From a virus, in UHGV virus genome UHGV-1372840: a stretch of DNA of 48,653 nucleotides. One strand, 5' to 3'. The notes under the pieces were generated by a model. It was given only the letters and a program-made list of their open reading frames with translations. It was not told the origin of the DNA and did no database searches. Position 1 is the first letter of the stretch, and each line of letters begins with the position of its first letter. The translations under genes were made by a program, and so were the position numbers. Positions 3,123 to 46,216 of this stretch are shown one piece after another.

Positions 3123-3151
3123 TGACGAATCCGTCAGAGTATGCCATAGTG
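3123..3151 (+). promoter_or_regulatory. Sigma70-like promoter with palindromic operator TTGACGaatcCGTCAg
   Basis: -35 TTGACG at 3123-3128, 17 nt spacer, -10-like CATAGT. The 16 bp dyad overlaps -35. Drives the rightward accessory-gene island beginning 3197. Confidence 0.45.
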
Positions 3152-3196
3152 ATAATCGTTGAACACATAATACATATATTTCACAGGAGATACAAC

Positions 3197-3586
3197 ATGA
3201 CCACGTGGAACTACATTATCGGTACGCCCGAAATGTTTGCGGGGATGTCCGAAGGTGTAACGCATTTGTTTCGTAGCAAGTTAAGCGGTGTCATTAGAGG
3301 GTATTACCCGTCAATAGCGTGTATTCTTACCCCCAGTGATGATTGGGAACTCATCGGACATCGTGAATCTGCCACCGATGACAGCAAATATAATCGCCCT
3401 TGCAAGGGTATCACCATTGACGTTTATGACGTTCTCAAAGCGTTCAATGTCACATGTCCCGCACTTCAACACCTGATTAAAAAGGCTTTAGCGGTCGGCC
3501 AGCGTGGACACAAGGACGCAAGTGAAGATTTAAAAGACATCCTGGCGAGCGCCAAACGTGCAATTGAACTGTCGGAGGGTGAGTAA
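3197..3586 (+). CDS. Hypothetical protein (accessory-gene island)
   Basis: ATG at 3197 preceded by AGGAGA RBS. The track ORF 3122..3586 extends upstream through the promoter, so the internal start is preferred. Confidence 0.45.
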   Translation: MTTWNYIIGTPEMFAGMSEGVTHLFRSKLSGVIRGYYPSIACILTPSDDWELIGHRESATDDSKYNRPCKGITIDVYDVLKAFNVTCPALQHLIKKALAVGQRGHKDASEDLKDILASAKRAIELSEGE

Positions 3587-3784
3587 ATGAACATCACGTG
3601 GTTTAGCCGTAAATTTACATATAATTGGTTCATGTGCCTGCTGGGGGTATTGTGTGCTAAATGGTTCGGAATGGATGATGCCCTATGGTGGACATTGATT
3701 CCCGCATTGTCTTTCGGTTTATCGAGAGATACCGAGTATTCACATGGATATTGGTTCTTAGAAAATAAGGAGAGCAACAAATGA
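3587..3784 (+). CDS. Small membrane protein
   Basis: 65 aa with hydrophobic segment FMCLLGVLCAKWF...WWTLIPALSFGL. Start overlaps the upstream stop (translationally coupled). Confidence 0.4.
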   Translation: MNITWFSRKFTYNWFMCLLGVLCAKWFGMDDALWWTLIPALSFGLSRDTEYSHGYWFLENKESNK

Positions 3785-3912
3785 ACACACCATACGCATA
3801 CGAAGTGACAACCAACCGTGGTACGACATATCTGGTCCGCGCGGGCAGTGTGGCGCATAACAACGCTGTCATGTTCGGGTATCAACTGAAACCACTGTAT
3901 GAGGGTGAGTAA
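3781..3912 (+). CDS. Small hypothetical protein (43 aa)
   Basis: ATGA overlap with the upstream stop; in-frame ORF MNTPYAYEVTTNRGTTYLVRAGSVAHNNAVMFGYQLKPLYEGE. Below the track cutoff. Confidence 0.3.
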   Translation: MNTPYAYEVTTNRGTTYLVRAGSVAHNNAVMFGYQLKPLYEGE

Positions 3913-3914
3913 TT

Positions 3915-4085
3915 ATGATTTGGACAGTTGGTCGTTATCCTTCCGGTAACTGGGATTCCGGCGGTTTACCTTCCGAATACATGGGAGGCTGGACATGTAG
4001 GGTAGAAGCCAAAGACAGAATTGAGGCTTTAAAGAAAGGTAAAGCAAAATATTACCGTGAGCAAAAGAAGGCTATAAAACCATGA
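3915..4085 (+). CDS. Small hypothetical protein (56 aa)
   Basis: ATG 3915 two nt after the previous stop; ends with an ATGA overlap onto the next gene. Confidence 0.3.
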   Translation: MIWTVGRYPSGNWDSGGLPSEYMGGWTCRVEAKDRIEALKKGKAKYYREQKKAIKP

Positions 4086-4276
4086 CAACCATCCCACGTT
4101 ACCCAACCGGAACACTTGTGAAGTTGTTCCCCAATGGTGTCGTTACGGGTGTTGTCGCAAACGTAATAGCCGATGAGCCACCGCGCTACTATGTACAGTG
4201 GGACGATGGTACTTACAGCTGTCACGCGCAGCGCGATTTGAAACGAGTGGGGACATTGTATGGCAGACTGGATTAA
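4082..4276 (+). CDS. Hypothetical small protein
   Basis: 64 aa ORF coupled to its neighbours. Confidence 0.4.
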   Translation: MTTIPRYPTGTLVKLFPNGVVTGVVANVIADEPPRYYVQWDDGTYSCHAQRDLKRVGTLYGRLD

Positions 4277-4472
4277 GTGTAGTGAGCGGATGCCAAAAAG
4301 CCGTCACGAGGTGTTAGTGGGACGTTGGTGGGGAGAGAAGCCACGGTGGTGTTGCAAATGGGCAACATATATCCCGGGACACCCTGACGCACAGAGTAGT
4401 GGCTGGCTTATTCCCGGCGCGTCGTGGACACCAACACACTGGCAACCATTACCCGAGCCGCCGCAGGAGTGA
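4260..4472 (+). CDS. DUF551-domain protein
   Basis: WIKCSERMP ... THWQPLPEPP matches the hallmark DUF551 motifs (WIpcsErlP / tHWmPLPePP) of enterobacterial phage accessory genes. Confidence 0.55.
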   Translation: MADWIKCSERMPKSRHEVLVGRWWGEKPRWCCKWATYIPGHPDAQSSGWLIPGASWTPTHWQPLPEPPQE

Positions 4473-4529
4473 CACTATGGACTACCTCCTGCTTTGTGTC
4501 GGCGTTGTGATTTGGGTTAAATGTTTATG

Positions 4530-4559
4530 TTGACGAGTTCGTCAGGGATGACGTATACT
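4530..4559 (+). promoter_or_regulatory. Promoter with palindromic operator TTGACGagttCGTCAg
   Basis: -35 TTGACG 4530-4535, -10 TATACT 4554-4559. Confidence 0.5.
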
Positions 4560-4591
4560 CAGTTTATCAACAACAGAGAGGGTGAGACAAA

Positions 4592-4744
4592 ATGAATAAC
4601 ACATTACTTCCCGGCTACAACCGCCCCGTATCAGAGGCGCACATTGTCGATAAAGAATTGTTAAAGACCGCACAACAGCTTGCACGCAAGCATGAAGGTT
4701 GGGTGCTCGCTAACGCTGTGTTACGTGAGGCGTATGGAAAATGA
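4592..4744 (+). CDS. Small hypothetical protein (50 aa)
   Basis: RBS GAGGGTGAG then ATG 4592; ATGA overlap with the next gene. Confidence 0.35.
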   Translation: MNNTLLPGYNRPVSEAHIVDKELLKTAQQLARKHEGWVLANAVLREAYGK

Positions 4745-4938
4745 ACCATAAACCTGTCAAAGCGGTAATGCTCCGCAACAATGACAAATTTATCGATGTG
4801 GACGGTGTTATCACCGTAACAAACTTCAAAATGAACTTCCCCGAGGATATCGTGACATTTACCGCGACTAAAGAGGATGGTTCGGTATCTGAGCGCTGGG
4901 TCGAGATGGACCGACTCGTCAATAAGGTGGTGGGCTAA
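4741..4938 (+). CDS. Hypothetical small protein
   Basis: 65 aa coupled ORF. Confidence 0.4.
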   Translation: MNHKPVKAVMLRNNDKFIDVDGVITVTNFKMNFPEDIVTFTATKEDGSVSERWVEMDRLVNKVVG

Positions 4939-5126
4939 TGGGCATTATTAAAGGTGTACTAATCATCCTGCTTGCGGGGTGGGTAATTCTGGCAACAATC
5001 GCCACGCTGCCTCTGGAACTGGAATACAAGTGGCAGGCATGGGCAATTGTTGCATTTGGCCCGGTTGTTGTATTTGCCGGACTGTGGGAAGTATGTGTGA
5101 GGGTATTCAGAGGACGTGGGAAATAA
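4938..5126 (+). CDS. Small two-helix membrane protein
   Basis: 62 aa: MGIIKGVLIILLAGWVILATIATL...WAIVAFGPVVVFAGLW. Confidence 0.4.
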   Translation: MGIIKGVLIILLAGWVILATIATLPLELEYKWQAWAIVAFGPVVVFAGLWEVCVRVFRGRGK

Positions 5127-5190
5127 CAGTGTCATCGCTTAACATTTGGGTCGGTTTTACCGACCCTTTTGTTGTTAGGTGTTAATCATT

Positions 5191-5808
5191 TTAGCCGATG
5201 TATCTTGCACCTTTCGATGTATTTTCAGAAGCCCATAAAGGTTGTAAATTCGACAGTGAATTTATGATTTTAGAATCTGTGATTCCCCACTCCACCAATA
5301 TCGATATGGGTATAATATGGTCGACATGCCACTCGCCATGATTTTCCCAAGTCATACCTGGTCTGAATAAAGACTCCATATGATTCTTAAATTCATCAAT
5401 TGAGTATCCTAGTTTCCTAATACTCACATTACTTCGGTTCCCATCTAAATATCTGTAGATGAGTTTATTTAGACAACCTCGGATAACGCACGACAATTTA
5501 TAATTTGAGTCAGTTCTATATCTATTTTTGTGCCGCGTGTTTATTTTTATTCTGTTCTCTGGTTTTGCTCTATATTCACGTTGGTACTGTTTCTTTTGTT
5601 CTCTGTTTTCATTGTATTTTCTCTTTTCCTTTTGTTTAATCTTATCTGATTGTTTGACATACGCCCTTTTACAGATTTCCCTACCGCACTCTACGCAGGT
5701 GTGATTACAAGTGAATCGCTCGGAAAGATGCCCATTTCTACATGGTTTACCGGTGAAATAACGAGGGTAACCATTTTCCAATGCTTCAACTCTAGATGTG
5801 ATTTTCAA
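5191..5808 (-). CDS. HNH homing endonuclease with N-terminal zinc ribbon
   Basis: HVDHIIP...NLQPL...N HNH core, Cys cluster CRNGH...CNHTCVEC, basic Lys/Arg-rich linker. Apparent TTG start with a GAGGT RBS. Confidence 0.65.
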   Translation of the reverse strand: MKITSRVEALENGYPRYFTGKPCRNGHLSERFTCNHTCVECGREICKRAYVKQSDKIKQKEKRKYNENREQKKQYQREYRAKPENRIKINTRHKNRYRTDSNYKLSCVIRGCLNKLIYRYLDGNRSNVSIRKLGYSIDEFKNHMESLFRPGMTWENHGEWHVDHIIPISILVEWGITDSKIINSLSNLQPLWASENTSKGARYIG

Positions 5809-5896
5809 AATTTACCTCTGGTCCGAAGGTGGTCAAAATAAAAAAAAAAAACGGCAAATAGTGACCAACTATCTTTCGGACGCCTCCTAGCCGTTT

Positions 5897-6688
5897 TTAC
5901 TTTTTCATTTTACTGTTTTTAATATGTTTTTCAACTTTAAAATCTGGTACAGCGATACTTACACATCTACAATTTATTGGTTGACCGGGAAAAGTAGGAA
6001 CACCATCTACAACCGGCAAATCATCCCATCGAAATACGCCCGGACCATATCCCACATCACGTTTAGCTACCTCTACGTGACTGTGACGTACCCGCTCATC
6101 GTGCGATGTGGTCCATTTAAAGTAATTTATTCCCGAATTAACCTGACGGATGCGGTTCATATCGCCCTGTATTTTACTGGTTTGATCCCTGGCAATTAAT
6201 TTAGCGCGACGTTCCGTGATACCAAACTGTTTAACGAGTGCTTCTTCAATGTAGCTGGGGCGCATACCGTTACGCATGTTGGTCATGACGATGTTCTGCA
6301 CCTGCTCCAGATACTGAGCCGGAATAGACTGAATGAGTTTAGCGTTCTGATATGATGCAGCGCTCAGATATTCCTGCAGCTGTGTATCGCCGCCGTACAG
6401 ATTGATGGCAAATGAGCGGGCGTTATCCTTTGCCGCAGTCTGTACAAACTGTGACGCGATGGTTTCAGCCTGGCGACGAGCAAATGCACCAAGCCACCGT
6501 GTGAGCAGCTGGTTAATTGCCGAGGTGATGGTGTCACTCCAGCCATCAGCCGTGTACTCCGGCGCAAGCTGTTTCACCAGTGGCACGATGTTGGCGTCCA
6601 CATCCTCACGAACAAGCCGGGCAACCTGTTTCAGCTGGCGATAATAATTTAGCTCTGTTTGTCGTGACATGCTTGACGGCCTCGTCAT
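5897..6688 (-). CDS. Head morphogenesis protein (SPP1 gp7 / Mu F-like)
   Basis: Follows the portal gene; Phage_Mu_F-like architecture and size. The track start at 6739 would be a TTG that reads through a + strand promoter, so the ATG at 6688 (MTRPSS) or 6670 is more plausible. Confidence 0.6.
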   Translation of the reverse strand: MTRPSSMSRQTELNYYRQLKQVARLVREDVDANIVPLVKQLAPEYTADGWSDTITSAINQLLTRWLGAFARRQAETIASQFVQTAAKDNARSFAINLYGGDTQLQEYLSAASYQNAKLIQSIPAQYLEQVQNIVMTNMRNGMRPSYIEEALVKQFGITERRAKLIARDQTSKIQGDMNRIRQVNSGINYFKWTTSHDERVRHSHVEVAKRDVGYGPGVFRWDDLPVVDGVPTFPGQPINCRCVSIAVPDFKVEKHIKNSKMKK

Positions 6689-6701
6689 GGTGGTATAGAG
6701 T
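6673..6701 (+). promoter_or_regulatory. Promoter with operator TTGACGgcctCGTCAt plus extended -10 TGgTATAGAGT
   Basis: 19 nt CGTCATGGTGGTATAGAGT identical to the promoter at 20180-20198. Lies inside the 5' end of the opposite-strand morphogenesis gene. Confidence 0.5.
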
Positions 6702-6727
6702 GTACATATTATCACAGGAGAAGAGAG

Positions 6728-6832
6728 ATGAGTAAACAATACGCGGAGCGCGCGATTGATGAAATGGTTCAGTTGTCCGGCGTGTCAATCGGTGCGGCTA
6801 AGATTCTGTATGACGCGGGGTATCGGAAATGA
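6728..6832 (+). CDS. Small hypothetical protein (34 aa)
   Basis: RBS CAGGAGAAGAGAG then ATG. Overlaps the next gene by ATGA. Confidence 0.3.
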   Translation: MSKQYAERAIDEMVQLSGVSIGAAKILYDAGYRK

Positions 6833-7185
6833 GTATATATCGTAAGGGATGGGTCCCGGTATTATATCGCTTCGAACTGGAGAAAAAGCTAAAAGAGCAG
6901 GGATTCGAAAACTGGCAACAAATTTCACAGTTCTTATGTAGTGGTGATGTCACGTCTTGGGATGATGACTTCAACGGTCCGGAACAATACGTTTATCAAG
7001 TGGTAGACAACAGTGAGTGGCGACAACGCCGAGACGCGAAATTCTGGCAAAGATTGAACAGACTATGGTTTATTCCATTATGGGTATTCACGATACCTTT
7101 TCAATGGTTGATTCGGGGAAGGGTTGGTTTCGAAAACGAATCAAAACTCGCCAAAATAATTATAAAATTAACAGGTCTCAGTTAA
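6829..7185 (+). CDS. Accessory membrane protein
   Basis: 118 aa; C-terminal TM WFIPLWVFTIPFQWLI. Rightward gene embedded between the leftward portal and morphogenesis genes. Confidence 0.45.
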   Translation: MSIYRKGWVPVLYRFELEKKLKEQGFENWQQISQFLCSGDVTSWDDDFNGPEQYVYQVVDNSEWRQRRDAKFWQRLNRLWFIPLWVFTIPFQWLIRGRVGFENESKLAKIIIKLTGLS

Positions 7186-11072: not shown

Positions 11073-11699
11073 ATGTATAAATCAAATATACAGTATGTAG
11101 GATTTATACAAATGTACCACCTTAGAGAAAATTGCGATTGTAAAACGTTCCATGAAGACACGGGTCTTTGTACACTTTGTGCCCGATACAATCATGAGGA
11201 CTTCGTGAGACATTTCAAAAACAGAACCAATTCTGACGATGAACATGAGCAATGGTTACTCGACCAGTTGTGGAACAACCCGAATAATGGTCTCAGAATC
11301 GGCACCAAACGCATGTCGAAATGTGGTCACCCTGGCGTCTATCGCGGTAGTAAATGTGCGATATGCTCCAAGATTAGTAAAGACGCTAAAGCCTCTCAGT
11401 CGCTTCAAAAAAGCACTAACCATGTAGACACAATGCGTTTCACTCTTGAACAATTAAACGCAACTATTGAGGAAATGAAGCGCCAACGGAAAACACTGGA
11501 ACAGGCCATACAGTTGGCTGAGATGGGATTGAATATCGGCAACATCACTTTAACCACTGTCAAGATGAAAACACCACGTCAAATAGCTATTGAGGCGGGT
11601 CAGAAGTGGTACATGCCTTACGAACCCTGTAAAAACTGCAATACAATATCTGAACGTTATGTAGCAAATGGTCGCTGCCGCAATTGTGGAGGTAAATAA
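11073..11699 (+). CDS. Cys-rich zinc-ribbon protein with coiled-coil segment
   Basis: Three CxxC-type clusters (CDCK...CTLC, CGHP...CAIC, CKNC...CRNC) and a central heptad-rich stretch. Start uncertain (11073 or the internal M). Confidence 0.45.
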   Translation: MYKSNIQYVGFIQMYHLRENCDCKTFHEDTGLCTLCARYNHEDFVRHFKNRTNSDDEHEQWLLDQLWNNPNNGLRIGTKRMSKCGHPGVYRGSKCAICSKISKDAKASQSLQKSTNHVDTMRFTLEQLNATIEEMKRQRKTLEQAIQLAEMGLNIGNITLTTVKMKTPRQIAIEAGQKWYMPYEPCKNCNTISERYVANGRCRNCGGK

Positions 11700-11992: not shown

Positions 11993-13147
11993 CTATTTTC
12001 CTTTTCCTTCCAGTCCATACTGGTCCTTAATCATTTCCACGGGGATTGATATTCTACCAATCTCACCGTAATTCCGATGATACGTTATGACTGTAGCACT
12101 TCTTCCGGAGTCGTAACCTCCGTTACTTGAATACTCATCTTTGGCCGCCAGAGTTTGGTGCATCTCAGTGATGAACATGTTGCTCTCTGCTACTTTCCGA
12201 TGATGATAGTGCCCCATGTGTAGGTAGCCAAACTTAGTACGGCCGTAAATCTCCCGGAACTTACTGGCGAATACTGCGTCCAACTTTTCCATCCTGGAAC
12301 AGTGCCCGTGATGTACACCAATCATTACCTTACCGAATTCGATTGCGTAGTAGGGACTTTGTTCGTCTACAATGGTCACGCGGGGATTATTGCTGTACAC
12401 CTCTTTAAACATCTCTCGCAACCATACGGCAGACGCAAGGTCGTGATTACCCGTGGCAATTAGCAGTGTCACTTTCCGATGCTTCTCCAGACACATGTTC
12501 ACGGCTCGCTTAATCACACGGATAGCAGTCTGTACCACTTTGAAGAAACGCGTATCAGAGTCTAGAATATGTCCGGATGTTGGTGTAACCGCCTTCAGGC
12601 CGTCAAAGTGCAGGAAATCCCCCTGAAGGTTAATGAGGCACTCTGTTGCATTGGGTGCCAATGTTGTCGCTGATTTGAACCACGATGATATGAGATGTTC
12701 CGCGATGTTGGTGTCGTAATCGTCTCCACCCTCTTCTTCACATGCCAGCATACCGATGTGCGCATCCGTTACTGTGTACATGTTCAAGAGAGTGCTATCC
12801 TCATCACGGGATATTAAATTAATTTCCTCTAGTGGGGATAAGCACTCTGTAAGCGCCGCAATCGCCTCCTGCATCATTTTCAACTGGCGCTCGGCGTCCA
12901 CATCGGTTTTAACCCATTGCAGCGCTACAGTCCCGTCCTCCTTCACCAGTGACGATGTACCTTTCACCTTGTAACCGTCCGGCACAAAGCGAGACACATT
13001 GCCACCATGACCCAGCCCGCGCGCACCGAGACGTTTGATGCGGCGGTTAATATTGCCGGGGCTCATGCCGTACTTTTTCGCAATGGCATGACCACTCATT
13101 CCCGCAGCCACGTCTGTCAGTAATTGCTCGTCAGTCAGTATACTCAT
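11993..13147 (-). CDS. HTH domain fused to calcineurin-like metallophosphoesterase
   Basis: N-terminal LTDEQLLTDVAAGMSGHAIAKKYGMSPGNINRRIKRL HTH. Phosphoesterase motifs DAH, GDFLHFDG, GNHD, GHYHH in order. Confidence 0.6.
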   Translation of the reverse strand: MSILTDEQLLTDVAAGMSGHAIAKKYGMSPGNINRRIKRLGARGLGHGGNVSRFVPDGYKVKGTSSLVKEDGTVALQWVKTDVDAERQLKMMQEAIAALTECLSPLEEINLISRDEDSTLLNMYTVTDAHIGMLACEEEGGDDYDTNIAEHLISSWFKSATTLAPNATECLINLQGDFLHFDGLKAVTPTSGHILDSDTRFFKVVQTAIRVIKRAVNMCLEKHRKVTLLIATGNHDLASAVWLREMFKEVYSNNPRVTIVDEQSPYYAIEFGKVMIGVHHGHCSRMEKLDAVFASKFREIYGRTKFGYLHMGHYHHRKVAESNMFITEMHQTLAAKDEYSSNGGYDSGRSATVITYHRNYGEIGRISIPVEMIKDQYGLEGKGK

Positions 13148-13443
13148 TACACTTTGCTCCGGCTTTTAACTAACTGGTCGATAACAACCGTAAAGAACTG
13201 GTTACAACCAACATTCGGGTAATCAATGCCGAACTTGTAACCTTTGATGATAAGGTCGGTCGCTGCAGGATTACCGCCCGGGTTAGCCCGTTTAATCATT
13301 TCCTGCACGCCCATCTGTGCACGTTGAGCGCTGCAACCGTTAAAGAGCAGGTTAGCAACCCGTGATTCATTTGTCTCAGCAGTAACAGCTGCGTTAACCT
13401 GAGCGCCCGCCAGGAGCGCTACAAGTGGTAAATATTTAATCAT
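13147..13443 (-). CDS. Small secreted protein
   Basis: MIKYLPLVALLAGAQVNAAV Sec signal peptide; two Cys; 98 aa. Confidence 0.45.
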   Translation of the reverse strand: MIKYLPLVALLAGAQVNAAVTAETNESRVANLLFNGCSAQRAQMGVQEMIKRANPGGNPAATDLIIKGYKFGIDYPNVGCNQFFTVVIDQLVKSRSKV

Positions 13444-13445: not shown

Positions 13446-13637
13446 TTAAGGTGCCTCATATAATGGTGTGGGGTCGCTATACTCTTTCAGTTTTGGGTCG
13501 CCAGCGTGAATTAGATAACCTTTATAGGTGATGTAAGCTACCGGATATTTGAATGTTTCCTCTAACTCAGCAACACGCGCCTCAGCCGCTAAACAGCGCT
13601 CCATCAACTGACAGTAACTCAGTGCTTCCATACCCAC
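13446..13637 (-). CDS. Hypothetical small protein
   Basis: 63 aa ORF in the leftward cassette. Confidence 0.35.
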   Translation of the reverse strand: MGMEALSYCQLMERCLAAEARVAELEETFKYPVAYITYKGYLIHAGDPKLKEYSDPTPLYEAP

Positions 13638-13792
13638 TGCTCCTGCACTTTACCTTCAACAATGAGACGAGTGACACACAGCCCGTCCCGGTCAGCCTGT
13701 GCACGCATACGTGACAGTGTGTTCAGCGCCTGAACCTCGGTCATACTACCCAGCAGGTCAGACAGTTTGTGATGGCTGATGATATTTTTCAT
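13619..13792 (-). CDS. Hypothetical small protein (57 aa)
   Basis: GGAGACT RBS before the ATG at 13792 (MKNIISHH...). The longer track ORF has no RBS. Confidence 0.35.
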   Translation of the reverse strand: MKNIISHHKLSDLLGSMTEVQALNTLSRMRAQADRDGLCVTRLIVEGKVQEQWVWKH

Positions 13793-13841
13793 TTGTTTAG
13801 TCTCCTTAATTGTTGTTCCGATGAGTTGAAGATAACCCACC

Positions 13842-13857
13842 TTGACGAGTCCGTCAA
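13842..13857. promoter_or_regulatory. Perfect palindrome TTGACGagtcCGTCAA forming the -35 of a leftward promoter
   Basis: On the - strand: TTGACG, 17 nt, TATCTT, then a GGAGACT RBS and the ATG at 13792. Same operator family as the rightward early promoters. Confidence 0.5.
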
Positions 13858-16252: not shown

Positions 16253-16570
16253 TTAAAGCAGGGTTGTTAACGCGCGGGTGCGTAACTCCAGTGGTGCAGA
16301 GTTGGCGATAGTGTCACCCAGCGCGATACCTTGTCCGATTAATTCGAGGTTTTCTTCTTCCACTGCTCGTTGCATCACTGCTTCACGAAGTGCGGACATC
16401 CTGACCCAGTGATGGTTAACGCTTCCCATCGCCACGCCAGCCTCGGCCGCAACACCATCGCGGGTAAGAGTACCAAAGCCGTCGCGCTGCGCCATCGTGT
16501 AAGCTACTTCCAGAATATGTTCTTTGCTCATAATTTCGGTTCCATTGGGTAATTTATTGCAGTATGACAC
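16253..16570 (-). CDS. TetR-like HTH DNA-binding protein (short)
   Basis: ILEVAYTMAQRDGFGTLTRDGVAAEAGVAMGSVNHHW follows the TetR_N pattern (ILdaA..Gf..tt...IA..aGvs.g.lyhhF). Only 105 aa. Confidence 0.45.
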   Translation of the reverse strand: MSYCNKLPNGTEIMSKEHILEVAYTMAQRDGFGTLTRDGVAAEAGVAMGSVNHHWVRMSALREAVMQRAVEEENLELIGQGIALGDTIANSAPLELRTRALTTLL

Positions 16571-16593
16571 AGGTTGACGGAGTGGTCAATCCC

Positions 16594-17070
16594 TTACAGG
16601 TCGCCACTTCCGTTCCAGAATTTAAAATCTCCACCCAGCCCAATGATGAGCGTCCCAAATGCAAGCTGTGCCTGTTCGTGTTCCGTACCTTTATACTTCC
16701 ATCCGGCTTTCTTTACCTCACGCGCCACAAACTGTCCAATGGTTGACCCGACCATATCAGGCGTGATAACCACGGGGCGAATACCGATGAGGTCGCTCGA
16801 CTTGATACGCTTGTTCATCGCCGGGGAGTCATTGCAGATGCCATAGCGTACAACTCGACCATTTTCGTCTTTTAACGCGCCGCAATTGTTTCTGAAAAGT
16901 CGCCAGCCCATCTTGCTTGCCAGTAGTCGCGCCTCATCCTGCACACGCGCTTCGGGTGTATCTTTGGTTGAGCGTGGGACATCCAGTCCCACCATTGTCA
17001 CAAGGTCAGCCAGCGCCTCAGCCGTGATACCGTGCTTACGTTGCCATTCGAGAAGTGTTGGGTAGGTCAT
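16594..17070 (-). CDS. VRR-NUC domain nuclease
   Basis: SDLIGIRPV...GQFVAREVKKAG...GTEHEQAQLAF fits the VRR-NUC PD-(D/E)xK core (D...EVK...Q). Confidence 0.5.
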   Translation of the reverse strand: MTYPTLLEWQRKHGITAEALADLVTMVGLDVPRSTKDTPEARVQDEARLLASKMGWRLFRNNCGALKDENGRVVRYGICNDSPAMNKRIKSSDLIGIRPVVITPDMVGSTIGQFVAREVKKAGWKYKGTEHEQAQLAFGTLIIGLGGDFKFWNGSGDL

Positions 17071-19716: not shown

Positions 19717-19778
19717 GTTTCACCTCTTCCAATGTCAAAACGTTGCTCCATTATGAGAGGTGATTCACCACATGTCAA

Positions 19779-20075: not shown

Positions 20076-20234
20076 GTTCTTTTTCTTCTTTCATTTTATT
20101 TTCCTCTCACTTATTGACGATGACGTCATTATGTCGCACCACCCACCCCGTGTCAAATTTAAAATTAGTGTTGACGAGTGCGTCATGGTGGTATAGAGTT
20201 CACCACATCGACAACAACGGAGGACAGAGAGACA
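20076..20234. promoter_or_regulatory. Divergent promoter region with two palindromic operators
   Basis: Leftward TTGACA-17-CATAAT with TGACGTCATCGTCAA (20104-20119) at its +1. Rightward TTGACGagtgCGTCAT-GGTGGTATAGAGT (20170-20198). Confidence 0.55.
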
Positions 20235-22916: not shown

Positions 22917-22945
22917 TTGACGCACTCGTCAAACTAACGTAGTAT
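22917..22945 (+). promoter_or_regulatory. Promoter with perfect palindrome TTGACGcactCGTCAA
   Basis: -35 22917-22922, -10 TAGTAT 22940-22945; upstream of the SSB-like gene. Confidence 0.55.
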
Positions 22946-32851: not shown

Positions 32852-34056
32852 ACGATGGTCACCGTGATGTTTGAGGTTGTCCAGCGGGATAATTCATTAA
32901 AGTCAATGGTAACATTCGCAGTGCCACCATTCAACGTCATACTGTTAACGTAACTGTTACCGTATGAACCAATAACTTTGTTAATAGGCGTGTAGAGCGA
33001 ACTGTACGGTACTGTTTCACCGATATCAAACCCATCCGGCTTAAACCCGTACTCTGTCGGAATCAGACCGCCAGCGGCGTATTCCATGATTGCATCCTGA
33101 ATGAGTGGCTCGAGAGTTGCCTGAGACGGTAGAGAACCATCATCTTTGATTTCAATAGCTACCACCATGTCCACATATACGGGGCGACTAAATTTGATAT
33201 CTTTGGTCATCGTCGGGTAAGTGGGCGATGTGACAGTCACGGTCACGCCGGTTCCAGCCTGATAAAGTGTGACACCCGGATTTTTTTTAAGGTAGATGGC
33301 CATCGCTACGTCGTCGTCCGTACCACCATCGACAATGGGAGCAATACTGTGACCCGGCTGACCGTTGCTGTCGGTGGTGGCTTCGTCGTTCTCATAGACA
33401 CGCACACGGCGTACACCTTCAACATTGAACAACTGACCCAGCATTGAATCAACCTGGTTGCTACCCGGCAGACCTACGGCCGTCGCTCGTTTAAGGCGTA
33501 ACGACCCATCCGATTCAGCAGATGTACCGGGTGTTGCTGGAGTGGGGTTATTAACCGATACTAATCCGGCAACCGTGTCCACAATAGTCGTGATGGTGTT
33601 GGCGTCTGCTTCGATTTCACCAACCGTGGTACAGGTGATATCAACCGTTGCGGTACCTGAACTATCCAGCGTCCACGTCTGGTCGAGAGTGAATCGATAA
33701 CCTGTCACAGATGATTCAAAGCGTGTGCCCGCAGGAACCTGAGTACCAGCAACACCCGTTAACACAAACCCTGTAACAGTCGATGCGGTACCTTCACTCC
33801 GGACGGTACCTGTCAGCGCGCAAATCACGTCGAGGTCGTAGCCGCTGGCTTTGTTCGGGTCTTTGGAGTTGTACGCCTGTTGCAACACTTCGTCGAGCGC
33901 GGAGAAGATTTCAGCATCGTGCGCCATCTTCAACCCATCGGGGGTGGATGGGTCAAGATTCCAGTTACTGTCGATACCCAGATATAACTGTTTTTCTTCG
34001 TCAAACCAGTCATTCTGTGATTTTACGCTATAGCCGGTACTGGTTAATTCAGCCAT
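32848..34056 (-). CDS. Baseplate wedge protein (P2 J / T4 gp6-like)
   Basis: 402 aa following the gp25/W-like gene in the conserved V-W-J order. Confidence 0.45.
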   Translation of the reverse strand: MAELTSTGYSVKSQNDWFDEEKQLYLGIDSNWNLDPSTPDGLKMAHDAEIFSALDEVLQQAYNSKDPNKASGYDLDVICALTGTVRSEGTASTVTGFVLTGVAGTQVPAGTRFESSVTGYRFTLDQTWTLDSSGTATVDITCTTVGEIEADANTITTIVDTVAGLVSVNNPTPATPGTSAESDGSLRLKRATAVGLPGSNQVDSMLGQLFNVEGVRRVRVYENDEATTDSNGQPGHSIAPIVDGGTDDDVAMAIYLKKNPGVTLYQAGTGVTVTVTSPTYPTMTKDIKFSRPVYVDMVVAIEIKDDGSLPSQATLEPLIQDAIMEYAAGGLIPTEYGFKPDGFDIGETVPYSSLYTPINKVIGSYGNSYVNSMTLNGGTANVTIDFNELSRWTTSNITVTIV

Positions 34057-34396: not shown

Positions 34397-35130
34397 CAGT
34401 TATTCGGCCCCGTATTAGAACCACCGGAAGCAACGCCGCCGTGGGTGTGTCCGTCAATTTCTTTACCGTTTAAAATAAGTGAACCAGGGGCGACAATATT
34501 ACCATCTTTATCAATTGTCACCCCGTTGATATTTGCGGTTCCATCTGCGAGTAATGTCACGTGGCCATTTGCATTTTTAATCATACATGACGTATCGTTT
34601 TTTAACCAGACGTACTGTGATGCGTCCACGTTGCGCAAGCGAATACCATCATTAACGAAACCGGCTATGAGGTTATCAAGTGAACGAATTCCCGGTACAA
34701 ACATTGCGTCCTGTTTGTGGTGAAAGCGTTTGACGGGATTAGCAGCAATGCCGCCGGTCTGCTTCCATCCATCAATGCAACGTTGACTAAAATGTACCAT
34801 GCCCTCACAACCGGGTTTAATCTCGAACTCCAGTACGAAGTCATCGCCCGGGAAACTTACGGGAACGTCCACGATGGGTGGTGGGTCAAACGTAGTTTTG
34901 GCGACATCATCGGTCCGGGTGATTCCCAGTTGAATTTGTGCGCGCTGCGTATCCGGGTCGAACGTCAGCACGTAACCCGGGATGCACGTATACACGTCCT
35001 TCATGTTCTCGAAAAACGTGTCATTGGTGACGTTCTGTAAAAACGAGCGGCGCTGGTTAATGTCGGTCATGTCGCCCTCCTGTGAAAATAATGTCAAGTA
35101 TACTATTGACACTCGCGTCAAACAATGCAA
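34396..35130 (-). CDS. Baseplate central spike (P2 gpV / Mu gp45-like)
   Basis: 244 aa. C-terminal beta-helical spike repeats and a terminal H-x-H-GGV motif. Confidence 0.5.
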   Translation of the reverse strand: MHCLTRVSIVYLTLFSQEGDMTDINQRRSFLQNVTNDTFFENMKDVYTCIPGYVLTFDPDTQRAQIQLGITRTDDVAKTTFDPPPIVDVPVSFPGDDFVLEFEIKPGCEGMVHFSQRCIDGWKQTGGIAANPVKRFHHKQDAMFVPGIRSLDNLIAGFVNDGIRLRNVDASQYVWLKNDTSCMIKNANGHVTLLADGTANINGVTIDKDGNIVAPGSLILNGKEIDGHTHGGVASGGSNTGPNN

Positions 35131-35592
35131 TTATTTATTCACAGGCATGTAGCACATGTGTCTTTAGCGGTCCGGGGTGTCCTATTCCTTCGCATCAGCG
35201 GGTAGCCGGAATGTGTAGCCAGGCATGCACGAATGCGGTTGGTCACCGTGGCGGTTCGACTAATACAACAGGTGAGCGTATTGGGTAATGTCAGCCCTGG
35301 TTCGAAGTCGAAAGACATGCGGTAATACCCAGCCCAGGTTCCAATACGCTCACCTGTTGTAACCCCCGAGGAGGTGGTCAACATCTTGCTGACGGGTAAG
35401 CCGTAAGTGACTGGAGTAATGTTGTGAAACATAACAACAGTTGCGAAATGGTTTTCGGATAAAAGCATTGCTCTTGTTCATTAGTAGGTCCCACGACTCA
35501 AACCCAAACGATGAAATCAGTGCTTTTAACAGTAAACCATAATCTCTCTGTTGTGCTCCTGCATGTTTGCCCCGTACTCCGGGGCTTTTTTT
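35106..35592 (+). ncRNA. Candidate noncoding or antisense RNA unit inside the tail operon
   Basis: Palindromic promoter TTGACActcgCGTCAA with -10 AATTAT. 19 bp perfect inverted repeat (35266-35284 / 35341-35359). Terminator GCCCCG-tactc-CGGGGC-T7 at 35569-35592. No ORF with an RBS. Confidence 0.4.
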
Positions 35593-36241
35593 ACAAATCC
35601 AAAAGTGTCGTAACCTGACCGGCAACATTCGTTGCGGCTGTCTTTACGTTAATGTAACCACGCTCAATCAGTCCGGATATGGAGGTGCTGGAAACGTCGT
35701 TACTGTTTAGCTGATACTGTGCCGGTTGTGAACCGTTCGCCACGCGGTCAAGTGTGACAATCTGTTGCAGTTCAGCAACAAATATCAGTCCGTTCTCATT
35801 CTCCGGGTCTTTAGAGCGCCCGATACGCTGAATGACCATGTTGTTCAGCGTAATTTCACCCGTATCCACTGTGAATACCTGCCCGGAATACATGAAATCG
35901 AGCAAAGTGTTCAGTGTCGTACTGGAGCGAGTCTCATTTGAGCCGCTCAACCATCCCGCGAACAGACCAGCACCCGTGGCAATAAATGGGTTGTCATCGA
36001 CGAGATTTGTCAACGCCCCGGTGAAATCGGTGATACTAACTTTCAACGGGTTGTTCGATACCGCACCCGTCATCGTGTAACGAATAGGCTGATAAATGAT
36101 GTGGTCAGCAATTGGCGTACCTGTTTCAATAGGGTACTGCACAATGTCCACGCTGGCGTCAAGGTCATCAGACAGGACGGCATCGAACTGAAGCGACCCA
36201 AGCTGTGGACCGCGCTTTACCAGAAGGTTAATTAAACTCAT
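35591..36241 (-). CDS. Putative baseplate protein
   Basis: 216 aa in the baseplate region. Confidence 0.4.
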   Translation of the reverse strand: MSLINLLVKRGPQLGSLQFDAVLSDDLDASVDIVQYPIETGTPIADHIIYQPIRYTMTGAVSNNPLKVSITDFTGALTNLVDDNPFIATGAGLFAGWLSGSNETRSSTTLNTLLDFMYSGQVFTVDTGEITLNNMVIQRIGRSKDPENENGLIFVAELQQIVTLDRVANGSQPAQYQLNSNDVSSTSISGLIERGYINVKTAATNVAGQVTTLLDL

Positions 36242-39844: not shown

Positions 39845-39968
39845 TTTATTCCCCTCAGTTAGATATCATCAATTCTATCGTTAATCGTGACCATAAACAA
39901 ATCGATTTGAACGGGTCGCGATTTTCATCGAAAGTACACTCACACGAACAAGAGAGGAGATACAAAAT

Positions 39969-40685
39969 ATGAATGACTTAATGACTGTCGACGATGTACA
40001 AACGATGTCCAGCCGTGAGATTGCGGAATTGACAGGGAAGAACCACGCGGATGTGTGTCGGGATGTTCGCGTGATGCTAGCGGGTCTGTATGGTGGTCAG
40101 GCTTCCGAATACGTGCGTAAAGCAAATCTGCTTCACATTACAAATCAAGGGGTTAATTGTGAGAGGTACGACAACCAGAACCCAAACGCTTGGGAGTATC
40201 TATTAGACAGGCGACATACGGAAATTTTAGTCACCGGGTACGACGTGAAGCGAAGAGCTGCTGTAATCGACAGGTGGTTCGAGCTAGAAAGTAATAAAAG
40301 TAAACTATCGTTACCACAAAACTATATTCAAGCACTTGAAGCGCTGCTGGAAAGCGAGAAAGAGAAAGAACGTCTCGCACTAGAGAACAAGGAGATGACA
40401 CCAAAAGCAGACGTCTACGACCGGATTGTAGAACGCAATGGTCTCTATAACGCCACTCAGATCGCCCAGAAGTTCGGACAATCAGCGATATGGCTAAACA
40501 AACAACTAGCCTCGATGGACGTCTACAATCGCTCCGTGAAGCGTGGACGTGTATTTCAGCAATGGTTCATCGATAGAGGGTACGGGATAATGCGGGAGAC
40601 AGAGAATGGGTTCTCGCAACCCATGTTCTATGCTGAAGGTGAAATGTGGATCGTTAGAAAATTATCCGAAGAAGGTTTGATTTAA
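39969..40685 (+). CDS. Rha/KilAC antirepressor-like protein, copy 1
   Basis: N-terminal MSSREIAELTGKNHADVCRDVR is the Phage_pRha signature; C-terminal KilAC/ANT-type domain. Confidence 0.65.
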   Translation: MNDLMTVDDVQTMSSREIAELTGKNHADVCRDVRVMLAGLYGGQASEYVRKANLLHITNQGVNCERYDNQNPNAWEYLLDRRHTEILVTGYDVKRRAAVIDRWFELESNKSKLSLPQNYIQALEALLESEKEKERLALENKEMTPKADVYDRIVERNGLYNATQIAQKFGQSAIWLNKQLASMDVYNRSVKRGRVFQQWFIDRGYGIMRETENGFSQPMFYAEGEMWIVRKLSEEGLI

Positions 40686-40960: not shown

Positions 40961-41076
40961 CTAAGAGGTCAATTGTGATCAATCACATCGTTAATCGTGA
41001 TCATGAATAAATCGATTCGAACGGGTCGTGATTTTTATCGAAACTACACTCACACGAACAAGAGGGGAGAACAGAG

Positions 41077-41793
41077 ATGAACGATTTAGTAAACACAAAA
41101 TCGGAACTAACCATGTCTAGCCGCGAGATTGCGACGCTAGTTGAGAAGCGTCACGACAATGTTTGCAGAGACATTCGCTCAATGCTCTGCGCTCTACATG
41201 GTGGTCACGATGAAGATTATGTTCGTAACTCAAATTTGAGTTACGTTACGAATCATGGGGTTACGTGCATTCAGTATGATACCACCAACCCAAACGCATG
41301 GGAGTACCGGCTGGATAAAGATAACACCATCTGCCTGGTGTCAGGGTATAACGCTCAATTACGAATGAAGATAATCAAGCGTTGGCAAGAGCTGGAATCA
41401 CGGGTGAATACACCCGCACTACCACAAAACTATATTCAAGCACTTGAAGCGCTGCTGGAAAGCGAGAAAGAGAAAGAACGTCTCGCACTAGAGAACAAGG
41501 AGATGACACCAAAAGCAGACGTCTACGACCGGATTGTAGAACGCAATGGTCTCTATAACGCCACTCAGATCGCCCAGAAGTTCGGACAATCAGCGATATG
41601 GCTAAACAAACAACTAGCCTCGATGGACGTCTACAATCGCTCCGTGAAGCGTGGACGTGTATTTCAGCAATGGTTCATCGATAGAGGGTACGGGATAATG
41701 CGGGAGACAGAGAATGGGTTCTCGCAACCCATGTTCTATGCTGAAGGTGAAATGTGGATCGTTAGAAAATTATCCGAAGAAGGTTTGATTTAG
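41077..41793 (+). CDS. Rha/KilAC antirepressor-like protein, copy 2
   Basis: Same length as copy 1. The C-terminal 120 aa are identical at the nucleotide level; the N-terminal Rha domain has diverged. Confidence 0.65.
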   Translation: MNDLVNTKSELTMSSREIATLVEKRHDNVCRDIRSMLCALHGGHDEDYVRNSNLSYVTNHGVTCIQYDTTNPNAWEYRLDKDNTICLVSGYNAQLRMKIIKRWQELESRVNTPALPQNYIQALEALLESEKEKERLALENKEMTPKADVYDRIVERNGLYNATQIAQKFGQSAIWLNKQLASMDVYNRSVKRGRVFQQWFIDRGYGIMRETENGFSQPMFYAEGEMWIVRKLSEEGLI

Positions 41794-42248: not shown

Positions 42249-42261
42249 CGGTCATCCTCCA

Positions 42262-43395: not shown

Positions 43396-43437
43396 GTTTA
43401 CGAGTCCTCGTAAGTTACAGTGTGCACACGTTGACCA

Positions 43438-44019: not shown

Positions 44020-44359
44020 AGCGGTCCACGATTACCTTACAGTATTTACGCCACGGGCGATTGTCGGTGCGAATAACTTTCCAGCGCTGACCCAGGAACA
44101 CCCATTCACCATCAAGTGCTATTGAGTCGAGGTCGCCATTGTTGACGTATATTTTACGCGGGTCAACGATGCGCTGACCACCTTGTTGCAAGAAATCAAT
44201 TTCCTTGTCACTCAGTGGCTGAATGTTCACCGTGAATGCGATTGGTCCGGATGTCACGGGGGTCCAGACACCGTCCACGTATGAGCCAGATTTACCCACG
44301 TGTGTGGCCGGTACAGATTTAAACACGTTGTCAATATGACCACGCATTGACAGACTCAT
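44006..44359 (-). CDS. Neck / head-tail joining protein
   Basis: 117 aa. Confidence 0.35.
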   Translation of the reverse strand: MSLSMRGHIDNVFKSVPATHVGKSGSYVDGVWTPVTSGPIAFTVNIQPLSDKEIDFLQQGGQRIVDPRKIYVNNGDLDSIALDGEWVFLGQRWKVIRTDNRPWRKYCKVIVDRYDQQ

Positions 44360-45099
44360 AAGATAATCCCCAATCGTTTAAGATTTAAAACACATCGCTC
44401 GTGTCTCCAAATCTTATGCACATACGTAGGATTCATACCGTATTTAGCGGCTATTTCAGAAACAGGAACATGACCTTTAGACGTATAGACGTCGTATATG
44501 ACCTCATCGGAATACTTACTCTTTCGGTCGCCGTTCTCCCAACTTCTGGAAAGTGCATCAGATTTTTTCTTTCTGGTAGCATCGGTGTCTTTTTTACCGG
44601 TGTGTGCAGCTATCTGTCGGTTACGGTATGTTTCATCATTCCATTTTGCCAGCAACCCGTCACTTATTTTACTCCTGACAACGTCATTATCCATTCCCTT
44701 ACGGGTCGCTTCAGATATGGCTAACCTTTCGGATTCATTGTTGAATCTAATTTTCTGTACTTTTGAGTTATGCGCTCTCATTTCATCATTAGGCGTATAG
44801 CCGGGACACCCAGCGCCACCAGTACATATGTTAACCAAAATCCCGCCGTCTGAGATTCTACCGAAAAGTGATATCAGACTTTTCTCAGCATCGAAAGCAT
44901 CCGATTTATTCTCATAAGTCCCAATTATACGGTAGGAGAGACTGAGACCTTTCTCACGATGTTCATCCACTATTTTCTGAACTTCCGGTCTACCACCTCT
45001 CTTTCCAGAAAAATGCTGTTGGGGCCTATCTTCCCTACCCGCCCCAACATAAAACGGAATCCCATCGTGGTTCATTAGCACGTATGTTACATATTTCAT
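44356..45099 (-). CDS. GIY-YIG homing endonuclease with NUMOD-like C-terminal repeats
   Basis: YVTYVLMNHDGIPFYVGAG...R...E core; repeated K-S-D-x-L-x-x-x-W-E NUMOD3-like motifs; C-terminal HTH. Confidence 0.65.
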   Translation of the reverse strand: MKYVTYVLMNHDGIPFYVGAGREDRPQQHFSGKRGGRPEVQKIVDEHREKGLSLSYRIIGTYENKSDAFDAEKSLISLFGRISDGGILVNICTGGAGCPGYTPNDEMRAHNSKVQKIRFNNESERLAISEATRKGMDNDVVRSKISDGLLAKWNDETYRNRQIAAHTGKKDTDATRKKKSDALSRSWENGDRKSKYSDEVIYDVYTSKGHVPVSEIAAKYGMNPTYVHKIWRHERCVLNLKRLGIIL

Positions 45100-45596
45100 A
45101 ATCCACCGTCCGGCTTTTCACTTGTCACCTTGTATGTTATGGATTGTAACAAAGAACCTGTATCAATTAAAGGATTGTCCGAACCTTTCTGTTCGATTGT
45201 GTAATCGCTGTTCGGTGGCGTGCGAAGGTCAGTCATGTACTGCTGCACCGCACCGGCTGCGAATGCGCCCACTTGTTCAAGCACATGGTCAAGCGGTAAA
45301 TCATTAGCCACGCCGTGAGCGATGGTGTCCACGATGTCCTGCTTACCGCTCTGTACACCGGGTATCAGCCAGGGGCGCGGTGGAATAGGTGCGGGATTAC
45401 CGTATAGCTTGTTATTCGGGTTACCGTAATTTAGCAATGCGCCAAGCTGTGCGTTAGTGATTCCCGAGTCAGGATGTTCACCCGCGTCCGAATGGATTCC
45501 GACAGTCACAGTCTTCTGACTGGCTTTAGCGTATTGCTCCAGTTTCGAACGTATTGCCTGTTTGGCTTGCCGCAGCGCTTTGATGTTGACCGACAT
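45096..45596 (-). CDS. Virion morphogenesis / head completion protein
   Basis: 166 aa; first gene of the tail/neck operon; GAGGAGGG RBS. Confidence 0.4.
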   Translation of the reverse strand: MSVNIKALRQAKQAIRSKLEQYAKASQKTVTVGIHSDAGEHPDSGITNAQLGALLNYGNPNNKLYGNPAPIPPRPWLIPGVQSGKQDIVDTIAHGVANDLPLDHVLEQVGAFAAGAVQQYMTDLRTPPNSDYTIEQKGSDNPLIDTGSLLQSITYKVTSEKPDGGL

Positions 45597-45757
45597 CGCG
45601 TACCCTCCTCACGTTTGTCAAGACATTATCACACAACGCCACAATAAAGCCACAGAATGCGGGTTTCGGAGTAAAAGCAGTACGATTCACTACCTTTTCG
45701 TTCGGAAGCCAGTGTTTTATGTCAATACCCTTAATACCCCCATCCATAATCCTCTGT

Positions 45758-45960
45758 GGGGTATGAAAAACTCCTTAGTTTTCATTACTATATATTACTA
45801 TACCCCTATACCCCTATAAAATAGTAATTAATATAGTAGTAAGATAGTAAAAGAATGTATATATACAGCATACAAACAGTAATAAAAGAGAAGGGAGAAT
45901 ATAGCAAGAATGTACGGGGTTTTCGGTTATGCGCGTAAGCTGCTGATTGTGAAAGTAAAA
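45758..45960. repeat. Copy B of the roughly 200 bp direct repeat
   Basis: See copy A; upstream of the leftward tail operon. Confidence 0.85.
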
Positions 45961-46038
45961 TTCATACCCCGTGGTTGGGGTTGGATGAGGGTATTTTCGG
46001 GTAATCGTTCATTTTTTTGTACAGAATAAAATTACAGT

Positions 46039-46168
46039 AATTATACGGTAGTACACTATAATTATATTGTACTACAAAGTTGTTCACTTTTTGATCGGAA
46101 TGAAATTATACGGTAGTACACTATAATTATATTGTACTACAAAGTTGTTCACTTTTTGATCGGAATGA
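46039..46168. repeat. Tandem 2 x 65 bp direct repeat, each with an internal palindrome GTAGTACA-N13-GTACTAC
   Basis: Exact duplication of ATTATACGGTAGTACACTATAATTATATTGTACTACAAAGTTGTTCACTTTTTGATCGGAATGAA. Confidence 0.85.
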
Positions 46169-46186
46169 AATTAGCCTCGACGTCAT

Positions 46187-46216
46187 CGTGTGGTATTGAC
46201 GGGTTCGTCAACCATT
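46187..46216 (+). promoter_or_regulatory. Promoter with perfect palindrome TTGACGggttCGTCAA
   Basis: -35 46187-46192, 17 nt, -10 TACACT. Confidence 0.5.

Follow-up and report, generated by a model that had tools for sequence, protein, structure and literature searches.

The stretch of DNA considered here is UHGV virus genome UHGV-1372840, the 48,653 nucleotides of which are called the window throughout. The genome, complete or nearly so, is that of a Klebsiella myovirus of Jedunavirus type, with 90-98% identity over most of its length to phages RCIP0015, KpV52, KpV79, pKp383, and JD001 and with the gene order of JD001. The late structural genes run leftward. Early genes diverge from a region at ~20.1 kb into a leftward arm with helicase, TetR-like, and primase genes and a rightward arm with exonuclease, Gp2.5-like single-stranded DNA-binding protein (SSB), and DNA polymerase genes, and several short rightward islands of small genes sit antisense between the late genes. 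Two elements of this genome are our subject: a 16-bp palindrome, TTGACG-N4-CGTCAA (the dyad), that recurs at predicted promoters across the window, and a 92-residue TetR-like protein (mini-TetR) that may bind it. Jedunavirus phages are under development for Klebsiella therapy.

A palindrome at predicted early promoters

The dyad is real and far above chance, as an original prediction of nine copies in this genome had claimed. Searching both strands of the window for TTGACGNNNNCGTCA returns 13 matches at nine places, where shuffled sequences lead one to expect 0.04, and in a census of palindromes of the 5-Nx-5 form the dyad, with nine copies, is the only one enriched, any other having two at most. 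The exact places of TTGACG-N4-CGTCA are 3122, 4530, 6673, 13842, 17577, 20114, 20171, 22917, and 46196, and allowing one mismatch in the full 16-mer adds 16574 and 35106. In a scan with a weight matrix trained on relatives only, the dyads stand out as 11 sites, not nine, at 16.5-24.4 bits, and the next best match has 12.6 bits; among 50 mononucleotide shuffles, one scored as high as 19.9 bits. Four of the predicted coordinates were off by 1-10 nt and now read 3122 (given as 3123), 20114 (20104), 20171 (20170), and 46196 (46187), and the copy at 35106 turns out to be the one-mismatch variant TTGACACTCGCGTCAA. Two sites had been overlooked: 17577, an exact copy in the helicase open reading frame (ORF), and 16574 (TTGACGGAGTGGTCAA), directly upstream of the TetR-like gene.

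Within the matrix, the N4 center (positions 7-10) holds ~0.1 bit compared with 1.6-2.0 bits in the half-sites. G6 and C11 are present in nine of the 11 sites, with a conservation of 1.6 bits. A partner half lies beside 15 of the 47 TTGACG hexamers in the window, whereas only one of 48 TTGACA hexamers has one. The promoter-like sites that have no dyad (19778 and 11046) and the −35 box of the leftward promoter at 20114 (PL) all use TTGACA, the sigma-70 consensus. Because promoters without a dyad use TTGACA and TTGACG pairs with the partner half, G6 and C11 appear to be a feature of an operator and not a preference of sigma-70. The sites with their predicted promoters, the mini-TetR gene, and the two promoter-like sites without a dyad are given here one per line.

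3122-3137, plus strand: dyad TTGACGAATCCGTCAG; promoter 3122..3150, TTGACG-17-(TG)CATAGT, for the accessory island 3197-4472 (genes of unknown function, DUF551; antisense to head genes)
4530-4545, plus strand: dyad TTGACGAGTTCGTCAG; promoter 4530..4559, TTGACG-18-TATACT, for small genes 4592-5126, past which lies a rightward terminator (5148-5166)
6673-6688, plus strand: dyad TTGACGGCCTCGTCAT; promoter 6673..6701, TTGACG-17-TAGAGT, for 6829-7185 (phrog_21746, function unknown)
13857-13842, minus strand: perfect dyad TTGACGGACTCGTCAA; promoter 13829..13857 (P13842), TTGACG-17-TATCTT, just past the primase terminator; predicted targets 13619-13792, 13446-13631, 13147-13443, and the exonuclease gene 11993-13147
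16561..16589, minus strand: promoter (P16574) with variant dyad TTGACCACTCCGTCAA, TTGACC-17-(TG)CATACT, 58 nt before the mini-TetR start codon
17563..17592, minus strand: promoter (P17577) with perfect dyad TTGACGCGCTCGTCAA, TTGACG-18-TAAAAT, within the 3′ end of the helicase ORF 17411-19057
20114..20156, minus strand: promoter PL, TTGACA (20156-20151)-17-CATAAT (20133-20128), with dyad ATGACGTCATCGTCAA at 20129-20114; predicted targets 19939-20094 and the helicase operon
20171-20186, plus strand: dyad TTGACGAGTGCGTCAT, 57 bp from the 20114 dyad; promoter 20171..20199, TTGACG-17-TAGAGT; predicted targets 20234-21154, an HNH gene, and the exonuclease gene 21647-22774
22917..22945, plus strand: promoter with perfect dyad TTGACGCACTCGTCAA, TTGACG-17-TAGTAT, for the Gp2.5-like SSB gene 23000-23812 and the DNA polymerase genes
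35106..35134, plus strand: promoter with the variant dyad TTGACACTCGCGTCAA, TTGACA-17-(TG)AATTAT, TG-extended
46196..46224, plus strand: promoter with perfect dyad TTGACGGGTTCGTCAA, TTGACG-17-TACACT, for 46260-46559 (phrog_9632, function unknown) and 46556-46687
16253..16531, minus strand: mini-TetR gene, encoding the 92-residue TetR_N-only protein proposed as the dyad-binding repressor
19750-19778, minus strand: consensus promoter TTGACA-17-CATAAT without a dyad, preceding the HNH endonuclease gene 19051-19716
11046, plus strand: promoter-like site without a dyad, preceding 11112-11699

The motif and its placement are direct observations. At ten sites the left half-site coincides with a −35 box, followed after a spacer of 17-18 nt by a TAnnnT-like −10 box, which bears out the geometry proposed in the original prediction; with start sites as predicted, these promoters match the sigma-70 consensus at 9-10 of 12 positions. 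Seven of them (3122, 4530, 6673, 13842, 20171, 22917, and 46196) have a Shine-Dalgarno sequence and a start codon 40-70 nt downstream. The predicted copy at +1 of a leftward TTGACA-17-CATAAT promoter also holds, at the corrected position 20114, where the dyad begins inside the −10 box and covers about −8 to +8 and would be an operator separate from the −35 box. Because this copy belongs to a promoter with a TTGACA −35 box of its own, the dyad is a unit independent of −35 function. The orientations had been counted as seven rightward and two leftward; they are six rightward plus 35106, and three leftward (13842, 16574, and 17577) plus the operator-like copy at 20114. The predicted targets of P17577 are 17067-17414, 16594-17070, and the mini-TetR gene; AAM22 (a Pantoea phage) and 16 relatives also have a dyad at the corresponding place. 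We rejected one candidate reading of the symmetry, a bidirectional −35 box with TTGACG on both strands of the palindrome, since neither a −10 box nor a gene recurs consistently in the reverse orientation.

Placement also bears on what a bound protein could do at these promoters. A class II, MerR-like, or MotA-like (−30 box) protein that activates or remodels promoters could account for a core-promoter site centered near −27.5, the part of the promoter at which T4 MotA and activators of the MerR type also work, and for the imperfect −10 boxes CATAGT, TAGAGT, and TATCTT. However, the −35 boxes are near consensus, the spacers of 17-18 nt are optimal and not the 19-20 nt of MerR-type activation, and one operator lies over the transcription start of a consensus promoter, a position that could only hinder RNA polymerase. 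TetR-family proteins, moreover, are overwhelmingly repressors (PMC3511530). We regard activation through the dyad as very unlikely.

Conservation of the dyad in related phages

Orthologous places in up to 25 related contigs were located by the 60 nt of downstream flank only, with no use of the motif. The dyad is present at every place located in this way. Nucleotide diversity falls from 0.38 over the upstream 30 nt to 0.00 for the left half-site, rises to 0.23 within N4, and drops again to 0.03 for the right half-site, where variation is mostly confined to the outermost base. Orthologs of P13842 keep invariant halves around seven different N4 sequences, and the TTGACC half of P16574 is kept in 24 of 24 flank-located relatives and in AAM22. 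This selective conservation is an observation, and two conserved halves around a free center form what would be the footprint of a dimeric protein. The window holds such a symmetric site, with selected halves and a free center, on the −35 box, the spacer, or the +1 position of several promoters. A dimeric DNA-binding protein would be by far the best explanation of the dyad, which is very probably a protein-binding operator; an operator duplex considered for it is TTGACGcactCGTCAA.

The same comparisons speak to the idea that no protein reads the right half-site and that a promoter cassette, its symmetry incidental, spread with the accessory genes by duplication or recombination. The accessory islands are mosaic, and the same dyad, TTGACGGGTGCGTCAA, is found twice, 354 bp apart, upstream of the SSB gene in three relatives (3446/3800 in L017, 3265/3619 in L018, and 3636/3990 in L030), which points to a duplicated promoter cassette or to an inserted small gene with its own promoter copy. 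Yet the −10 boxes and flanks of different window sites are unrelated outside the half-sites, and in orthologs N4 and the upstream flank diverge freely but CGTCA does not. The dyad is also found detached from any −35 box (20114), and it recurs in the phages CP-T1 and PEi21, which have no megablast-level similarity (~85% or more) to the 24.5 kb searched. An unread right half-site strikes us as extremely improbable.

Beyond close relatives, the dyad keeps company with the mini-TetR gene, and this co-occurrence is again observed directly. TTGAC-N6-GTCAA with at most one mismatch occurs 13-21 times per genome, against ~2 expected, in JD001, PEAT2, AAM22, CP-T1, and PEi21, and mini-TetR of the window is 53% identical to its counterpart in Pantoea AAM22, 37% in Vibrio CP-T1, and 33% in Edwardsiella PEi21. 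The syntenic dyad places are the divergent early region, the SSB promoter, the helicase 3′ end, and the region upstream of the mini-TetR gene, and further ones lie after the primase gene, upstream of the baseplate-spike gene, and at the antisense islands. Phage ZF40, with the same virion module as the window, has no mini-TetR and uses lambda-like cI/cro control; it shows one match where 1.6 are expected. Among metagenomic viral loci with a mini-TetR of 30-62% identity, 19 of 23 have at least three sites, often with one upstream of the mini-TetR gene, and TGACG-N4-CGTCA is the top palindrome in 13 of them, one at 62% G+C. One metagenomic locus (L057) has a different top palindrome, which we set aside as three copies of a >100 bp repeat unrelated to promoters. 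Conservation of the putative dyad/mini-TetR circuit extends across a wide group of small myoviruses, with phages of Klebsiella and Vibrio and many metagenomic viral contigs among its carriers.

The mini-TetR protein, the proposed circuit, and neighboring loci

The original prediction pointed to a TetR-like protein at 16253-16570 as a candidate binder. Its helix-turn-helix (HTH) is of the TetR type: residues 19-65 of the 105-residue ORF match the Pfam domain TetR_N (PF00440) at 27.3 bits, above its cut-off of 24. Because all homologues are 92 residues long and begin MSKEH, we place the start at 16531 and not at the GTG that would extend the ORF to 16570, so the protein has 92 residues, not 105, and consists of the N-terminal domain only. 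A canonical TetR has ~180-220 residues, with a C-terminal helical domain of ~130-150 residues for dimerization and ligand binding, and the 92 residues of mini-TetR leave no room for that domain. Consistent with this, phmmer finds 36 solved TetR-family chains of 186-273 residues, all matching in the N-terminal HTH region (query residues 2-73) and limited to the first 60-100 residues of those chains. PF00440 is found on all 120 close homologues among the matches listed, and a profile search of a 5.8-billion protein set gave only close relatives among the matches listed. In a representative protein library the family comprises 141 clusters at 50% identity (E<=1e-10), mostly of 90-115 residues.

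How so short a protein might dimerize is suggested by its last 40 residues (consensus LELIAQGIALGD..A.SAP). They have about as many invariant positions as the HTH, and AlphaFold2 gives them a predicted local distance difference test (pLDDT) score of ~90; on these two grounds they are likely to be the dimer interface. A subfamily of ~165 residues (P0140, P0142, P0149, and ~40 other clusters) has an extra N-terminal TetR-type HTH in front of a full mini-TetR unit. Such proteins may be a natural single-chain version with two HTH units, which fits two units acting together.

TetR proteins act as homodimers on palindromic operators of ~15-16 bp, usually overlapping both the regulated promoter and their own. 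The 16-bp dyad is consistent with this pattern, as is its conserved copy ahead of the mini-TetR gene: both the window and relatives with 51-62% protein identity have a dyad promoter ~58-60 nt before the mini-TetR start codon, and its −35 half is always TTGACC in the Jedunavirus-type relatives and AAM22. The 16574 dyad is presumed to be the autoregulatory operator of mini-TetR. Scans of 40 ORFs with Pfam and/or PHROGs, most of them in the early and accessory regions, found no other DNA-binding regulator domain, and the only other regulatory-type family among them is a pair of Rha/KilAC proteins. That mini-TetR binds the dyad and represses the promoters is, on the sequence comparisons, our favored reading and somewhat better than an even bet. 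Two likely annotation errors came to light in public records. In AAM22 (L004), the annotated start of gp73 (40278-40616) is a TTG that falls in the operator and precedes the conserved MTKERIL start by 20 codons, and in JD001 (L003) the RefSeq entry for gp48 (30700-33396) reads "terminase large subunit" where relatives have the helicase.

The operator could instead be bound by another protein, either a small phage protein or a host regulator such as a RutR-like member of the TetR family, which the phage would exploit to couple early transcription to host physiology. Escherichia coli RutR has as its consensus TTGACCAnnTGGTCAA, a 16-bp palindrome (PMC2475637). The dyad has an equal 16-bp geometry and agrees with this consensus at ten of the 14 specified positions, some in vivo sites of RutR match it at no more than 7-11 of them (PMC2475637), and the mini-TetR promoter itself has a RutR-like TTGACC half. 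Many small early proteins have no assignable function, and co-occurrence cannot separate mini-TetR from the rest of the replication module. However, RutR wants C6 A7 and T10 G11, whereas the dyad strongly conserves G6 and C11, and a TTGACCA half occurs only at the mini-TetR promoter, in one half. Phages of Klebsiella, Pantoea, Pectobacterium, Edwardsiella, and Vibrio all retain the motif, as do GC-rich metagenomic contigs, and because it spans phages of so many hosts, a single host factor is a less economical explanation than a shared mini-TetR. A conserved operator on the mini-TetR promoter is also the classical signature of an autoregulated repressor. We consider a binder other than mini-TetR unlikely.

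With mini-TetR as the repressor, the binder, the repression, and the timing that we infer would fit together as follows. The dyad promoters look intrinsically strong because of their near-consensus −35 boxes and 17-18 nt spacers, and they would fire once the DNA enters the cell, yielding the replication genes, the small antisense accessory genes, and the repressor itself. A dimer of the 92-residue TetR_N-only protein would bind the dyads and, at ten promoters, occupy −35 to −20 in competition with sigma-70 for the −35 box; because the left half is the −35 hexamer and the right half fills the first part of the spacer, the bound dimer would exclude sigma region 4. At PL, the operator would block the transcription start. 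Both positions, −35 to −20 and the transcription start, are classical ones for repression. The mini-TetR gene lies in the leftward early operon, itself under an operator; PL, P17577, and its own weaker promoter could each drive it. Accumulating repressor would turn down the whole promoter set together with its own weaker TTGACC operator-promoter, a delayed negative feedback on the entire set.

Five of the dyad promoters (3122, 4530, 6673, 35106, and 46196) oppose the surrounding late operons, and shutting off the antisense islands would clear those operons of head-on transcription. The accessory islands with dyad promoters (3122-5185, 6673-7185, and 46196-46687) are all oriented against the flanking late structural operons, so that early transcription of an island and late transcription meet head-on, and AAM22, CP-T1, and PEi21 have the same layout.

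A number of points weigh against mini-TetR as the repressor of a dyad regulon. The protein has no C-terminal domain of the kind by which TetR proteins dimerize. Its AlphaFold2 monomer, built with 24 close homologues, is moderate (pLDDT 76, predicted template modeling score 0.51), with the lowest confidence where the recognition helix begins (residues 34-42), and Foldseek found no significant fold match to the model in the PDB. Across distant homologues the recognition helix changes (AMGSVNHHW, ATGTVSFAF, STGIVSYYY) but the TTGAC core stays constant; with that core the same in all groups, covariation of recognition helix and half-site gives no evidence either way. Four of the 23 distant mini-TetR loci have no dyad enrichment. 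ZF40 lacks the entire replication module, so the dyad co-occurs with that module and not provably with the mini-TetR gene, and T1, an unrelated sigma-70-dependent phage, has six loose matches, so the one-mismatch count has a non-trivial background. The window contains strong promoter-like sites without a dyad. Finally, the literature on this phage group yielded no electrophoretic mobility shift, footprint, binding, or infection-transcriptome data.

The promoter-like sites without a dyad also narrow the scope of the proposal. The original prediction spoke of a single early regulon; one that covers all early transcription goes too far given those sites and the different upstream element of the Rha/KilAC genes. 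The latter are two paralogues of Rha plus KilAC (antirepressor) type, at 39969-40685 and 41077-41793 on the plus strand, 77% identical overall and identical in their C-terminal halves. They share an element upstream (39880-39960 and 40985-41065) that reads ATCGTTAATCGTGA...AAATCGATT...TCGCGATTTT.ATCGAAA.TACACT and contains no dyad, which suggests a second, separate control element.

Antirepressor-type genes are also among the reasons to ask whether mini-TetR and its operators form an immunity-type system and not a device for lytic timing, one that by silencing all early promoters together could support a quiescent carrier or pseudolysogenic state and superinfection immunity. Phage CP-T1, which has mini-TetR and dyads, is reported to be temperate, yet its genome has no known lysogeny genes (Comeau et al., PMC3391216). 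PEi21, for its part, has an annotated Ant protein, and in the window the replication-gene promoters also carry operators. On the other side, Jedunavirus phages are isolated and described as lytic, and integrase or partition genes are not annotated in JD001, AAM22, or PEi21. No mini-TetR relatives of the Jedunavirus/AAM22 or CP-T1 type were found in 185,579 species-representative bacterial genomes, in scans that used short peptide patterns and one genome per species and therefore had limited sensitivity. A repressor gene in an early operon under its own operator would, in addition, give feedback and not bistable maintenance. With no prophage copies found by that scan and an architecture that looks like feedback, we keep a lysogeny-type role as a distinctly unlikely reading. 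We would put the broadest version on the same low footing: that mini-TetR-like proteins make up a large and so far undescribed family of small phage repressors, each with the −35 hexamer as its operator half-site and able to silence all host-polymerase promoters of a phage genome at once, and that in some members, CP-T1 among them, this is what underlies a temperate or pseudolysogenic carrier state outside the three known lysogeny mechanisms.

Several other loci deserve mention. The 35106 promoter is followed by a rightward stretch of ~455 nt that ends at an intrinsic terminator (35569-35592). This region (35106-35595, plus strand) is antisense to the baseplate/tail operon, corresponds to a gap without annotation in JD001, and contains no supported ORF; an overlapping minus-strand ORF (35139-35468) has no PHROG. 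Its predicted fold reaches -163 kcal/mol (z = -4.2 relative to shuffles) and includes a long, near-perfect predicted helix of ~22 pairs at ~35264-35361. An Rfam search found no known family anywhere in the window. A dyad occupies the syntenic place in AAM22, CP-T1, PEi21, PEAT2, and JD001, and the transcript is a candidate structured non-coding RNA. For 46260-46559, Pfam lends the earlier "AP2-like" label no support at E<=0.1. Homing-endonuclease genes of the HNH type break up the early operons at 19051-19716 (minus strand), 21160-21675, 25615-26157, and 5191-5808, and one HNH gene splits two parts of the DNA polymerase gene. Inspection by eye upstream of the late operons revealed no late-promoter motif.

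Relation to known systems

The promoters themselves are not new, because the depositors of KpV52 and KpV79 annotated orthologous 29-mers. Their GenBank records mark the same sequences as "promoter" at orthologous places, for example TTGACGAGTGCGTCATGGTGGTATAGAGT; the 29-mer at 20171 has this annotation in KpV52 on an identical sequence, and the 22917 ortholog has it in both phages. The annotation in these records is limited to the −35 to −10 stretches at a few sites, and the features and notes shown for KpV52 and KpV79 contain nothing on dyad symmetry, an operator reading, or a TetR link, so the reading of these sites as a dyad is new. Literature on Jedunavirus, JD001, KpV52/79, PEi21/MSW-3, CP-T1, and phage TetR-like repressors yielded at most mention of a "tetR" gene. 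A lead to UmuDAb proved irrelevant, as TTGACG occurs there only in oligonucleotide flanks. The outcome is a testable regulation map of eleven promoters, one operator, and one candidate 92-residue regulator with an autoregulatory site, which could extend to a regulon in the whole group of small myoviruses. If the map is right, mini-TetR would show a TetR HTH working without the canonical dimerization and ligand domain, synthetic circuits would gain a compact part in a 92-residue repressor whose 16-bp operator also serves as a strong −35 box, and the unexplained temperate behavior of CP-T1 would have a candidate explanation.

One close parallel is Cro of lambda and P22, acting at OR and OL in lytic growth. 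As proposed here for mini-TetR, Cro is a small HTH protein of phage origin that is expressed from an early transcript, acts as a dimer, binds ~17-bp dyads overlapping early promoters, and on accumulation turns down early transcription, including that of its own gene. Lambda, however, has two operator clusters of three sites and a bistable switch with CI, whereas the window phage has single dyads over at least 11 dispersed promoters, no CI partner, no lysogeny genes, a TetR-type HTH, and a half-site that is the −35 hexamer itself. In the dispersal of its sites it resembles the systems of the P1 C1 repressor and the "stoperators" of mycobacteriophage L5 gp71, in which one phage repressor governs a regulon of many short sites scattered across the genome. 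In P1 and L5, the sites lack symmetry and help to maintain the prophage, and those of L5 often act inside transcription units, in contrast to the symmetric sites on core promoters of a lytic phage described here.

RutR and the TetR family at large have in common with the proposed system the TetR_N HTH and a 16-bp palindrome with the same TTGAC...GTCAA outer bases and spacing, and most members of the family are autoregulated repressors; the dyad differs from the RutR site in having G/C rather than C/G at positions 6 and 11. Unlike the family, mini-TetR has 92 residues and no ligand-binding and dimerization domain, and therefore no small-molecule induction would be expected. Phage phi29 offers a precedent for a virulent phage whose own DNA-binding proteins, p4 and p6, repress host-polymerase early promoters in mid-infection. 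Its p4 also activates the late promoter and p6 is nucleoid-like, whereas no late-promoter role is visible for the dyad. Measured against these systems, the kind of circuit is known, and what is new here is a phage repressor-operator regulon that would be built on a TetR_N-only mini-protein, with a half-site that is the −35 hexamer.

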